64,000 nt of DNA, from the NCBI GenBank assembly GCA_905178155.1, contig CAJINV010000005.1:4071556-4135555 (forward strand), read 5' to 3'. The notes beneath the pieces were generated by a model. It had not been told where the DNA came from, searched no databases, and worked only from the letters and a program-made list of their open reading frames with translations. Below are positions 8,009 through 59,957 of the stretch, piece by piece. Position 1 is the first letter of the stretch. Every line of letters starts with the position of its first letter. Made by a program: the position numbers and the translations under genes. The stretch is from Amoebophrya sp. A120. Lineage: Eukaryota; Protista; Dinoflagellata.

Positions 8009-11000
8009 TCATCCCGCAGACAGGTGACTGCTCCCACCACCTGGTACGCCGGGCGGCAGCATGGAGGACCCAGCAGGTGGCCCACCTTGGTGCCCGGCAC
8101 CAGCGCCTGCAATGTTGCCGCCTGCGCCCCCACCGCCCGGCGCTCCGTAGGAGGATGCTCCTGCGCCGGCACCCGTGCTTCCGGCACCGCCCCAGCGTAT
8201 GTACTCCTCGGTCTCCGCAGCCTTGTATTCTTCGCTGAGGGATAGGACCACCTCTTTGGATTCGTCGAATTCGTCCAGGGACTCGGAAAACATGGGCTCC
8301 TGGCGGTAATTTTCCAGGAACGCGTTGCGGGACCGGAGCTTGTCGTACTGCTTGATGCAACGATCGTATCGTACGAAAAAAGTGTTTCACTGTAAGGATT
8401 TTGCAATTTCTGCATCACAAGTTTGCTCTACATCACAGAGAAAATTTGCCATGCTAGATTCCTAAGGGAAAAGACAGCTAAAAATCCATTGTCTTGCATG
8501 TGTAGCAAGACAAACACTTCTCAGATACAGTTTCTGCATTACAAGTTCACAGTGAAGCAGTTTTTTCTTGCGATAGATCGAACAGGCCCGCGATCGCCGT
8601 GTGGTTGGCCAGCATCAAGCCCGAGACCTTGTTCTGGTGCTGTACGTAGGGCGACTGGCGGGAGAGCGCCACCTGGATGCTCGCAGGGCCCCACCGGATG
8701 AACTTCGCTAATTTGCGCTCCCGAATCCGCTGCAGCGACCGGTGTACCTGCGTGGGGTCTACTTCGCCCTGGATGATGTTCAAAATGCTGATGTACACAC
8801 CGCGTCTCGTGCTGCATATGGAGGCGTCAGAATTGAAATTGACAAAGTTGAAAAATTTGTGATGCATAAAACCGATACCAGTTGGAAGCCCAATTTCCAA
8901 GCGGCGCATGACAAATCTCGACGTCATCGAAATCCAGTTTGTCATGCTGTTTAGTGAAAGAAGGCATCCTTTGTCATGCTACTTTAGCAGCTCTACCCCA
9001 AACCCGAAACAGGCTCACAATCGGCCTCACTTGCAATCCCTGCAGGACAGTCACTTCTAGCCTTGCATTTTATGCATCGCAGATTATTTCAAATTCAACT
9101 TTGTCGATTTCGATCCTGACACTCCCATACTGCAGCTGACCATGATATTCTTGGCGTGGAGCAAACGCCGCATCACGTCCAGAACCGTGGTCTTGCGGAC
9201 CTGGTGTACGTTTTTCCGATATTTCTCTGTCAGTGTCGATGTCATCATAAAGATCATGATATCTATGCATGATCTTCCTGTTCGTCTACTTAACAAGTAG
9301 CGCATGACATGAGATTCAATAGAGCAGGTCGTGGTTGTGGATGACACCTGTCCTTCTTGCTAGACATAGTTATTTCCATGCTTGTTTGCGCAGGCGATAG
9401 GAAAAGCCAACACCTCCACCTCCGGCCCCACCCGGTCAGAATGAAATAAGTAGAGCTGGACTGATACTAACATGACTCACCAGAGGACTACGTCATTGTA
9501 TGCCTGCCGCGAACAACACGAGCACTGCCTTGTCACTGCGTACCGATCGATGGTTGTGGTTCTTGTACAGTTCTGCTAGAAAGAGTGTGCATGCATGGAA
9601 ATAAGCAACAAAATTGAATAAAATCAAAATCTTTGCTACCGCGGTTATTTGTCGGTCAATCATGAGTGGAGTATAGCCGGTCATGAGGAAATGGCACCGC
9701 GGGGTTGGGATCAAAGAAGCCACTATCCCGACGAGATCGTTATTCATGTACGATGGATATCGCAAGGTGGTCGTTGAGGCGGCCATAACTGAAAGAATGA
9801 AGTATATTATATTTGTATACCAGAAAACTCAAACTTCTTTGTATGTGCTTCTGCTTTCCCGTGTGATATGGCTCCATAGACGGTCGAATAACAAGAAAGG
9901 AACTTGTTTTTTTAGTTTTCATTCTCAGCTTCAGCTTTAATACTGCAATCAATGAATGAATTATGAACAATATCATCCACTGCAACAAGCATGAGCAGAG
10001 ATTAGGACCTCCTGCTTCTACCTGTGGAAACTAGTGTGTTGGTTTGTGCGAAGGTTGGGTTCTGGAGCTTCAAGCGATCCACTGCAATCCGATTCAGTGC
10101 CGTGTTGTCCAGAACCACCACGCAATCGGAGTTCAATGCGAGGCGCTTCAGCGTCAGAACGCTGTTATACGGTTGCACCACAACGTCGGAGGTTTCGCTG
10201 GACAACAGCGGAAATACCGAGTACGTCATTATCAACTTCTTCGGATACCTGTGGTGTTGTTGAGGACGAAGGTAAACGGCGGGAACTAAGTGGAATGGCT
10301 TTCGGCGGGCGCGCGTCAGCATCGCATCTTTCGACAAAGAGAAAGACGAAGTTCGCCCGCACTCTTGCATGAAACAGCTGCATTTCAAAAAATGTAGGCT
10401 GCAGCTTGAGCTTCAACTTCGTGCTCCATAGAAGGACATGAATGAATCATGTCGCAGTCGCATAAGAATCGTAGTTAATATAAAAAGTTTTCGAACACGA
10501 ACTACATGCTGATCCCCATCCGTTCCCGTTGCCCTTTGAAAGTAGCCACACTATATTACCAATAAGCTTCAGCTTTTCTTACCCGCAAGGACCGCAAGAC
10601 TAAACAAGAATTTTAGAAGAAGCGAATAGCACGGGCACGGGGACAGACCAGAACTTCTACAAGAATAAAACAAAATTATTTATGCGACGTCTCTCGCTCG
10701 TGCTCCCACCTTACCTGTCGTTTATGTTTTCCAAAATGTGCGACCCCATGCCGGAACCGGTGCCACCTGCGATGCGGTGTCCAATGCAATTATGCCCGCG
10801 TATGGAGCGTTGCGAAGCAAGGTTTTTTTTGTGATGCAGGTGTGTGGATGAAATGGACGGCGCGGAAGTTCTCATACAGGGCCAAGCATGAGGAGAAAAA
10901 ATTCTGACGCGGCGGCTGTGCGCTACCGTAGCACACATCAGCCACCGTGTGCGTAAGGCGTAACAGTTATGCTTATGCATGACGCACGAGAAACTACGAC

Positions 11001-11919
11001 TATGTGACAATCAAGGGAGTCAGGCTCTACTTAACTTGCTCGCGCCCTTCATTGATATGCACGACAGACACAGAGCCATACGTCCTGCCAGACAAGCATG
11101 ACACAAATCTTAGAAGACTGGCGGGACCACCTGCATCAGCGACTGACGATATCCAGCCAGCCAGTCAAATCTTGCAATCTTCCAGACTCAGACATATTTT
11201 GATTTCATACGGAGTGGATCAGGACGAAACCTTCGAGGCTGTCACTTCCGTCCGCCTCCCGGTCGATCATGTCGAAAATCTCTTCGCAATGTTTCTCGCC
11301 GGAGTGGAAGCCTTTTGCCTGATCATGGCGAATAAAAAAAGTAAAAGCAAGTACAACAAAATCGATTCTGCTCGTGCGCTACCGCCTCTTTCAAAGCCAT
11401 CACGCTGATTGCGTCTACTTGCAGAGGAACAGATAGAAGAGATGAGACGAGATGTGACTATTTCATTCTCATGCTGTGCGAGAAATGCGCCATCATGTGC
11501 GTCAGGTGCGGCGCAACCTGATCTTAGGCCACCTGCATGTTTCGGTGAACAAGCACAGATTTATTAATAATCCAAAACAAGAACAACTTATTTTATTTAG
11601 ATACCCAATTATTTCCTGCACCGCCACCCTCCTTACTGATGAAAATGTTCTCCGGGTTATACAGATCTGCATAGGACGAGTTTTGTATTGCATTGATGAC
11701 GCGCGGCTCGAGGTCGATGAGCAGTGCCCGCGGAATGTATTGCTCGTCATCCGCTTGGTAGAAGAAAACGTCTTTCCGATCGTCGGCCAAGTGCGTCGCG
11801 TAATCCTCCAAAATCCCCTTTTGGTTGATGCCATGCTCCGCGCAGAGCGTCTTCCAAAACTCCATACCAATCTGGTTCCCACATTGTCCCACCTGGAGCG
11901 TAATGATTTCTCGTGGCAT
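8009..11919 (-). CDS. TUBG1: Gamma-tubulin, 8 exons
   Basis: [18 protein letters not shown]..., [112 protein letters not shown] introns at 11319-11604, 10249-10714, 9789-10021 and 9201-9639. Non-canonical introns at 10774-11210 and introners 8817-9129 and 8367-8575. Confidence 0.97.
8367..8575. mobile_element. Introner family 3 in gamma-tubulin
   Basis: TATCGTACGAAAAAAGTGTTTCACTGT ... ACAGTGAAGCAGTTTTTTCTTGCGATA; TSD GATCG; removal gives GLFD|RCIKQY. Confidence 0.93.
8817..9129. mobile_element. Introner family 2 in gamma-tubulin
   Basis: TATGGAGGCGTCAGAATTGAAATTGACAAAGTTG ... CAACTTTGTCGATTTCGATCCTGACACTCCCATA; TSD CTGCA; removal gives [11 protein letters not shown]. Confidence 0.95.
10778..11209. 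mobile_element. Decayed family-1 introner forming a GT..GC intron of gamma-tubulin
   Basis: Right end TCTTCCAGACTCAGACATATTTTGATTTCATA, left end TGTCCAATGCAATTATG. The intron required to give HS|IAGG (10774-11210) is exactly element+5. Confidence 0.65.
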
Positions 11920-59600: not shown

Positions 59601-59957
59601 GGGGATGCGCATTACAAGAACAAGTCTTCCTGTCTTTGCAAATCTGCATTACAACTCTGGTGTGGGTACGTTTCTACTCAGGATAGCTGCAACAGATTCC
59701 TCATCGGCCTGCGCCATCTTCAGAAGATCCACAAAAGAATCCACGCAACCCTCTACAAGAAGGTCGATGCAGTGGCTTTTCCTATCCTTCCTCTGTTCTG
59801 CGGCGGCAGCGGAACTCTTCTCCGCGGTCTGGGCATCACCCGCGCCGCTGCCGCTCTGCACCGCAGTTGTTCTCCCCGTTGCATCCAGCTGAGAGGAAGG
59901 GAGCGCACCAGTAGCGCGAAATTTCACGCTCGTTTGGTACGCCGCTGGTATTTCCAT
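56661..59957 (-). CDS. TTC29: Tetratricopeptide-repeat protein, TTC29-like (flagellar), 7 exons
   Basis: CIDLLVEGCVDSFVDLL at the N-terminus, TPR helices (ANLNLGTCEEKLGNWENAMTYHE; ARSALAQAYEATGNIEEA) and C-terminal LGMARGQANYGKYMH|LVQNDLGALLQWKSRRA*. All six introns are introner-derived and restore frame. The family call is from memory of the motifs. Confidence 0.75.
56720..57034. mobile_element. Introner family 2
   Basis: TATGGATGCGTCAGGTTCGAAATCGAC ... ATTTCGATCCTGAGGATTCCGTA; TSD GTGCC/GTGCA. Confidence 0.9.
57217..57535. mobile_element. Introner family 5, diverged
   Basis: TATCCCGTGTAAAAAAGCGTTTC ... GAGACGTTTTTACTCAGGATA; TSD CGCCT; EAQA|KACLSLG. Confidence 0.88.
57718..58348. mobile_element. 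Highly decayed introner whose TSD creates a GT-AG intron (57714-58349)
   Basis: TATG...CATA ends and perfect TSD CCTGA (sense TCAG|G); ESIR|LQQQYL. Confidence 0.7.
58527..58713. mobile_element. Short diverged introner
   Basis: TTTCCCAGAGAAAAAAGCA ... TGCTTTTTTCTGTGTGATA; TSD CCGCC; KVLA|DRFL. Confidence 0.82.
58976..59239. mobile_element. Introner family 1
   Basis: TATGGATGGCAAATGTGTCTGGGTCTGG ... TTTGCAGTTGATA; TSD AAGTG/AACTC (2 mismatches); frame restored. Confidence 0.9.
59401..59685. mobile_element. Introner family 5
   Basis: TATCCTGAGTAAAAGCGTAGCCACACCAGAGT ... ACTCTGGTGTGGGTACGTTTCTACTCAGGATA; TSD GCTGC; SVAA|DKDDG. Confidence 0.93.

Follow-up and report, generated by a model that had tools for sequence, protein, structure and literature searches.

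A conserved, regularly spaced internal motif shared by introner families of Amoebophrya sp. A120

The 64,000-bp stretch of Amoebophrya sp. A120 analysed here (contig CAJINV010000005.1, positions 4,071,556 to 4,135,555 of the forward strand; hereafter the window) is eukaryotic, with Pfam matches to tubulin, TPR, ankyrin and RRM, all on the minus strand, and is interspersed with short TAT...ATA elements bordered by 5-bp target-site duplications (TSDs). An initial annotation had described an octamer, TGTVATGC, recurring in both orientations inside several element families, and had proposed it as a binding site for a common factor, either a transposase or a dedicated excision/splicing protein. Our analysis revealed an array of sites that is conserved, spaced and indifferent to strand, and that is dispensable for removal of the element from RNA in several introns. 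We put at roughly 60% the probability that the motif is the core of an arrayed site, to which a transposition factor that the families would have in common likely binds on double-stranded DNA.

Repeated introns are known from this organism: in the text of Farhat et al. 2021 (PMC7789003), 29,850 of them are assigned to 1,954 families, and the A120 introners are described as non-coding and non-canonically spliced, with inverted repeats that start with TAT, seven variable bases and at least three A, and with direct repeats of 3–5 nt at their borders. We called elements as TAT...ATA inverted repeats (a TAT or TAC end being required) with a flanking 5-bp duplication identical at four or more of its five positions, and an exact search with the terminal inverted repeat (TIR) of one family, family 0, added at least 130 related loci (232,950 bases). 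Joined to the window, these yielded 238 elements, which fell into 23 clusters, the largest with 141 copies, with element lengths of 109–352 bp in the clusters listed; because 141 of the 238 came from the query family, the statistics on motif, spacing and cross-family sharing were weighted per cluster or group. The flanking duplication was identical at all five positions in 206 elements and at four in the other 32. Among the 46 ends of the 23 cluster representatives, the first three positions were T, A and T in 46, 46 and 45 cases, and positions 11–15, where an A-tract was no criterion of the search, were A in 33, 38, 41, 33 and 29. The TIRs, initially described as unrelated, share across families a terminal signature, TAT-N7-A-tract, that is also that of the published A120 introners. 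With terminal repeats, direct repeats at the borders, removal from transcripts but retention in DNA, genomic repetition and no internal transposase gene, the elements match A120-type introners. The family-0 TIR had no match in viral contigs. The elements are known and the internal array is apparently undescribed: neither the text nor the searched supplements of PMC7789003 and PMC12130899 mention an internal motif common to families or its spacing, and nowhere in the open literature searched, including the review PMC11282704, was such a motif described for these introners.

TGTVATGC matched the window 87 times on the two strands, compared with 8.1 ± 3.1 in 100 dinucleotide-preserving shuffles of the window (highest count 17), and was present, within one base, at all 11 positions first cited as examples (8859 is 8858, and 46138 is 46139). 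Seventy-one of these strict matches fell in 28 automatically called elements, which cover 7,630 bp, and seven more in four elements added by hand, so that 78 of the 87 lie inside elements; two of the nine outside are in an aged intron at 10774–11210. Three strict sites (20444, 20466 and 20595) stand in an AT-rich segment, 20330–20680, where no element was called. An orientation-competing expectation-maximisation model of the 238 elements widened the motif to aaaYTTGTSWTGCa, with about 4.8 sites per element. A second GCA was weakly enriched at +11 to +14, outside the position weight matrix (PWM) used for calling (234 de-duplicated contexts, non-independent within a group), which brings the site to about 24 bp.

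Such a word might be a relic of one ancestor built of 32-bp repeats, surviving by descent or through CpG-type mutation, an explanation to which we assign little probability. The terminal signature and the TSD length are indeed common to all families, and the motif is rich in TG/CA in elements whose observed/expected ratios are 0.71 for CG and 1.36 for TG. That richness does not account for the sites, however, because the 23 clusters held 47.5 strict sites whereas dinucleotide-shuffled elements gave only 1.2 (maximum 5 in 200 shuffles). Masking the sites lowered the cross-family similarity of the interiors from a mean z of 3.8 to 0.9 and left 12 instead of 77 of the 253 cluster pairs above z = 4, most of the 12 joining clusters that were later merged; descent might still be read in this residual similarity and in spacers at least 60% alike in 1.2% versus 0.27% of pairs. 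Spacers between paired sites were nevertheless near random in sequence (38.4% identical across families versus 36.3% when shuffled) while their length was held.

Comparisons within families also weigh against a relic. In six family-0 subfamilies (71 copies, 6–17 sampled per subfamily), singleton changes, which are not separable from master-lineage changes, numbered 55 of 3391 in motif columns versus 325 of 10631 in the other interior (p = 6e-6), and shared variants 18 in 280 motif columns versus 165 in 912 other interior columns; the TIRs, one of which was fixed by the search, had 53 singleton changes of 4260, near the motif rate. The ratio of motif to other divergence from the nearest consensus was 0.73 in the 15 copies less than 5% diverged and 0.31–0.40 in the 127 others. 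Motif columns thus change two to three times less than their neighbours, and the families are not merely collinear homologs without enrichment or excess conservation of the motif. By these sequence comparisons the relic explanation is largely refuted; the families likely share an ancestor, and the motif word and its spacing are selectively kept beyond that common ancestry. As for the direction of change, most substitutions in the eroded sites of the element at 56720–57034 are T>C and A>G and thus lead towards CpG, opposite to what methylation decay would produce; in family-0 interiors, too, A>G/T>C outnumbers every other kind of change (439 of 1373).

Measurement of motif spacing, as proposed in the initial annotation, showed same-strand pairs at a fixed 31–33 bp. 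Strict sites gave 8.1 such pairs versus 0.67 in random placements and PWM sites at 10 bits gave 21.2 versus 2.1; no 3-bp window of any of 1000 randomisations scored above 7 (strict) or 10 (PWM). After related clusters had been merged, leaving 16 groups, a 31–33-bp pair was found in 11 of them (summed fraction 9.2 versus 1.35 random). A lattice of 16-bp multiples, seen in family 0, was rejected across families, where only 31–33 held (period 16: R 0.23). The first inward site was centred 37–38, 45–49 or 57–60 bp from the end, with others at 41 and 52–53. Terminal bases 4–10 best resembled the site in a register centred on base 7 (p = 0.006 versus shuffled bases, although the register was chosen post hoc and the absolute score is negative), which would place the terminus 30–31 bp from the sites at 37–38. 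The elements thus have repeated, conserved sites inside their ends at constrained spacing, as expected of an internal binding array.

Removal from RNA was assessed in unstranded assembled contigs of runs X1, X2 and X4 (one RNA sample) and of X3, which show that removal occurs, not how efficiently, and are compatible with a quantitative effect on splicing; 15 of 31 joint rows were read, three of which were discounted as artefacts of repeats. Run X1 represents spliced RNA, since its tubulin contig lacks the canonical GTAAG...CAG intron (piece lengths 169 = 169) with the reading frame intact. Run X5 has the character of DNA: one contig of 5,084 bases spans 9109–14192, others enter element ends at a depth of about 43, and the joints listed for this control are dominated by artefacts of repeats. 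The raw-read run X9 placed nine reads, all in repeats. Intact elements were skipped with exactly five extra bases in contigs of X1, X2 and X4, leaving five ambiguous bases at the joints, and an element plus 5 nt was likewise skipped in X1 and X3. Fourteen introns had RNA support: four held no site of at least 9 bits, two held one, one held two and seven held three or more. In the four site-free introns the ends are eroded, with 7–17 of 30 end bases matching at the fixed 5-base offset.

The element at 52698–53038 had been taken for an intergenic miniature inverted-repeat transposable element that lacks the motif. It has no strict site, as claimed, and one degenerate one, but it is not intergenic: it is skipped with one TSD copy (joint 52692>53039) in three RNA-like runs, at depths of 51, 26.7 and 15.7. 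Because it lies 302 nt past the end of the longest frame of the spliced contig (376 aa, minus strand; strand inferred), it is probably an intron of the 3' untranslated region, and, being motif-poor yet spliced, this supposed intergenic control points the other way. Its centre holds a 118-bp loopless hairpin (52783–52900, 86% complementary) and short tandem repeats, and it may use a different internal signal.

Nor do the arrays follow the transcript. Strictly one-direction arrays agreed or disagreed with the inferred transcript in a ratio of 14:13, and lopsided arrays in a ratio of 54:38 (p = 0.12), host strand being called by a codon model trained on the window's minus-strand frames and partly circular there (minus in 24 of 24 window calls at a margin of at least 3). 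In family 3, whose five or six sites almost all point one way, the ratio was 7:9 (16 confident calls of 17), and the elements at 59401 and 54930, with arrays of opposite polarity, are both skipped in RNA contigs. With motif-free introns skipped, arrays blind to polarity and the control itself an intron, the proposed dedicated excision/splicing protein is disfavoured, because 4 of 14 RNA-supported introns are site-free and one-direction arrays stand at 14:13.

A role of the motif in RNA, as a branch point, a splicing-protein site or a set of inverted copies by whose pairing the intron would zip up as a hairpin, seems improbable for the same reasons. The branch-point consensus is yUnAy, which GCAU-N-AC resembles. 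A GCATNACA copy lies about 37–49 nt from either end in most families; in predicted folds 73% of motif bases are paired, compared with 63% of the other interior, and 38% pair with another motif; 85% of the first 20 element bases pair with the far end. A novel splicing factor would moreover be expected because U1 is missing from Amoebophrya according to the published text. Fixed polarity and a position near every 3' splice site, as of a spliceosomal branch point, were not observed, however: in 59 of the 201 elements with a strand call, the last 70 nt before the 3' end are free of GCAUGACA-type sites, and the variant best suited to a branch point (N = A) is the rarest (2.0 versus 8.5–25.3). Strict sites are absent from the canonical tubulin intron, arrays that point one way are found in either polarity and cannot zip, and RNA pairing leaves direct repeats 31–33 bp apart unexplained.

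A binding site for a common factor, as first proposed, is supported by the excess conservation, the 31–33-bp spacing over unrelated spacers and the sharing across families, and the transposase branch of that proposal fits best, although no such protein was found. The factor might instead be a host protein without a direct role in cutting (a transcription factor, for example, or a protein of chromatin or DNA architecture) that would make insertions tolerable or recruit the splicing machinery while transcription proceeds, which we consider unlikely. Strand-blindness and 31–33-bp spacing, after all, speak only for double-stranded DNA, and a host protein would suit sharing among families with different inner TIRs; the text of Farhat et al. 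2021 (PMC7789003) reports no transposase in A120, and integration host factor (IHF) is described as having a conserved site between the transposase sites of an I-F3 CRISPR-associated transposon (CAST) end (bioRxiv 10.64898/2026.07.09.737429). Nevertheless, elements contain 78 of the 87 strict sites, aged spliced introns lose their sites, so that the host has no need of them for expression, and the terminus weakly resembles the right half of the site in the same register, which suits an end-binding protein.

In the transposition factor that we favour, an integrase-like-class transposase (TA...TA ends, 5-bp TSD) or a dedicated cofactor would bind the sites cooperatively, three helical turns apart on one face of the DNA. 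Binding would load and pair the ends, TAT-N7-A-tract ends and the array sufficing for movement with any inner TIR, which would explain how many families could be served by few or unseen transposases. After insertion, a separate route would remove the element and one TSD copy from pre-mRNA, probably by means of the paired ends and co-opted splice dinucleotides; the array would decay in old copies while splicing persisted. It is also possible, and we suggest it tentatively, that one shared integrase-like mobiliser, perhaps domesticated or unrecognised, reads a helically phased lattice that starts at the terminus and repeats every three turns, and moves all A120-type introner families whatever their inner TIR sequence. 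Such a mobiliser would leave the TIR free as an RNA stem for splicing, would mean that mobility and splicing are divided, within one element of 100–350 bp, between a code read in DNA and another read in RNA, and would resolve the reported lack of matching transposases.

Several observations weigh against a shared transposition factor. No transposase family match was obtained among the 31 open reading frames scanned, and two long candidates for autonomous elements proved to be one non-coding insertion and one chance pairing (the long TIR pairs L023 and L026 were rejected as such, no transposase frame being seen). The sample is dominated by the family used as search query, 141 of 238. Five of the 16 groups have no 31–33-bp pair at 10 bits and one has it in only one of five members, three related clusters lack an inward site near either end, and the first site is only marginally in helical phase with the end (R 0.50; at 10.5 bp p = 0.03, and 0.10 if the period is left free; 16 points). 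Singleton depletion in the motif would also be expected from splicing constraint on each copy, and the element at 52698–53038, which looks recent because its TIRs and TSD are perfect, has one site only.

Tn7-like elements generate a 5-bp TSD, and the subterminal repeats of CACTA and hAT elements are further analogues of the array. By analogy, the array would work like the internal sites of the P element and the end arrays of Tn7-like/CAST elements. The P element, as described in PMC7776569, combines a TIR of about 30 bp with a short 10-bp internal transposase site at unequal spacing at its two ends, but each of its ends has a single site and its TSD is 8 bp long, whereas in the introners two to seven sites are spread throughout the interior, the TSD is 5 bp and families have the site in common. 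Tn7-like/CAST ends resemble the array in having several 20-bp transposase sites per end, uneven, asymmetric and cooperatively bound, with a host-factor site between them; these elements are bacterial and, according to the same text (bioRxiv 10.64898/2026.07.09.737429), homologs do not cross-mobilise, whereas the introner site is common to families that differ in their inner TIRs and the elements are introns. Farhat et al. (PMC7789003) leave open, in their text, how the A120 repeated introns move and are spliced, and argue against general transposase-mediated mobilisation; in contrast, the array described here argues for a common sequence-specific factor acting at the DNA level.

With respect to class, family fam38 of A120 is listed by Gozashti et al. 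2025 (PMC12130899) as a DNA element with TIRs, Ginger, having a TSD of 5 bp and TA/TA termini, with integrase-like homology. From the texts of PMC10045372, PMC6839031 and PMC2836005, IS3EU/GingerRoot elements share the TA..TA termini but usually have a 6-bp TSD, whereas introner RNA joints skip the element and 5 nt; Ginger2/Tdd elements share a TSD of 4–5 bp (5 bp in TDD-4 and TDD-5) but end in TGTNR, whereas introner termini are TAT. On sequence characters the introners would therefore belong fully to neither group. The word ‘subterminal’ does not occur in the GingerRoot text.

A conserved, spaced and family-spanning site offers concrete bait for finding the mobilising protein, and by the array live families might be told from dead ones and autonomous partners traced; splicing without the motif, in turn, narrows the splicing signal to the element ends. 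Individual elements and introns are listed in Table 1.

Table 1. Elements and introns of the window, in window coordinates; signed numbers are site centres with their orientation
Feature	Coordinates	Strand	Remarks
TAT...ATA element	3996..4293		TSD GCTGC; 52+ 83+ (31-bp pair) 140+ 160- 248-
Family-0 element, TIR TATCAAATGTAAAAATGTCTGGGTCTGGAAG type	4347..4608		TSD GTGCG; an inward pair at each end, 47+ 79+ and 187- 218-
Family-1 element	8367..8575		TSD GATCG; RNA contigs skip element and one TSD (8361>8576); pair 142- 173-
Family-5 element, in tubulin gene	8817..9129		TSD CTGCA; 46+ 93- 128+ 160+ 261-
Canonical GTAAG...CAG intron of tubulin gene	10249..10714	-	No strict motif; removal inferred from contig piece lengths, 169 = 169
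Aged GTAT...CGC (GT-GC) intron	10774..11210	-	Two strict sites, 10830 and 11096
Family-0 element	14168..14429		TSD AGAAG; 45+ 76+ 130+ 144- 169+ 184- 216-
Family-9 element	17385..17639		TSD TGTTC; 58+ 104- 153+ 185+ 199-
Family-7 element	17732..18047		TSD CGGCT/CGGTT; inverted copy of neighbour at 18135
Family-7 element	18135..18439		TSD CGTTT; pairs 48+ 79+ and 141- 174-
Four family-0 elements	26720-26980, 27076-27337, 27405-27655, 27710-27962		Own 5-bp TSD and site array each
Family-5 element	28373..28690		TSD AAGCC; pairs 53+ 85+ and 154- 186-
Family-0 element	36601..36855		TSD GTTCG; orientation opposite to subfamily mate at 27405
Aged GTATG...TTG intron	41415..41789	-	Skipped in RNA contigs; no site >=9 bits
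Family-14 element	43121..43357		TSD CTGAA; skipped in one RNA contig; 48+ 92- 143+ 190-
Family-5 element	46320..46637		TSD GATGT; pairs 140+ 172+ and 241- 273-
Four family-0 elements	46797-47047, 47992-48254, 48625-48887, 50963-51224		Site arrays
Motif-poor exception	52698..53038		TIR 30/30, TSD AGCAA; a single degenerate site at +81, TTTGCCACGCA; skipped in RNA contigs
Aged GTAT...GC intron	53443..53687	-	Skipped in RNA contigs; no site >=9 bits
Aged element	53927..54262	-	Skipped in RNA contigs; no site >=9 bits
Family-0 element	54495..54759		TSD CGGTG; skipped in RNA contigs
Family-1 element	54930..55143		Four sites, all + (the transcript would show GCAUGACA alone); skipped in RNA contigs
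Diverged family-5 relative	56720..57034		Eroded sites, TAC end; skipped in RNA contigs
Diverged family-3 relative	57217..57535		All sites on - strand; skipped in RNA contigs
Aged element TTT...ATA	58527..58713		TSD CCGCC; no site (best 5 bits); skipped in RNA contigs
Family-0 element	58976..59239		Eroded TSD, six sites; skipped in RNA contigs
Family-3 element	59401..59685		Six sites, 51 82 131 164 212 249, all - (the transcript would show UGUCAUGC alone); skipped in RNA contigs

The two family-7 elements at 17732–18439 stand in opposite orientation with 87 bp between them, forming a 700-bp near-palindrome inside one gene. The aged introns at 10774–11210 and 53443–53687 are minus-strand GTAT...GC introns with a GT donor and a GC acceptor. 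The joint 57711>58348, considered as a canonical control, was rejected, as it belongs to an aged TAT...ATA element whose TSD supplies GT-AG; the segment 57712–58347 is an introner turned into an ordinary-looking intron, with its canonical GT-AG taken from the duplicated flank.

Inserts and repeats were also observed beside the elements. Locus L026 (1501–2472) holds a 972-bp family-0 introner, in an RPB1 frame, with an insert of about 700 bp that is A-tailed and has on its flanks a duplication of about 19 bp, which includes the last GCATGACA site, and a related insert (72% mean column identity) lies at L058 (1–232), just after the matching site of another subfamily; the insert is possibly a retroelement that inserts at the motif. 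In the window, three copies of a segment of about 35 bp follow one another at intervals of 1.7 kb (20896–20945, 22651–22700 and 24389–24438), with short tandem AT-rich repeats near 23000–23260; no Pfam match was found in five frames tested in the region of this triple repeat, which may be the remnant of a site-specific or split-repeat retroelement.

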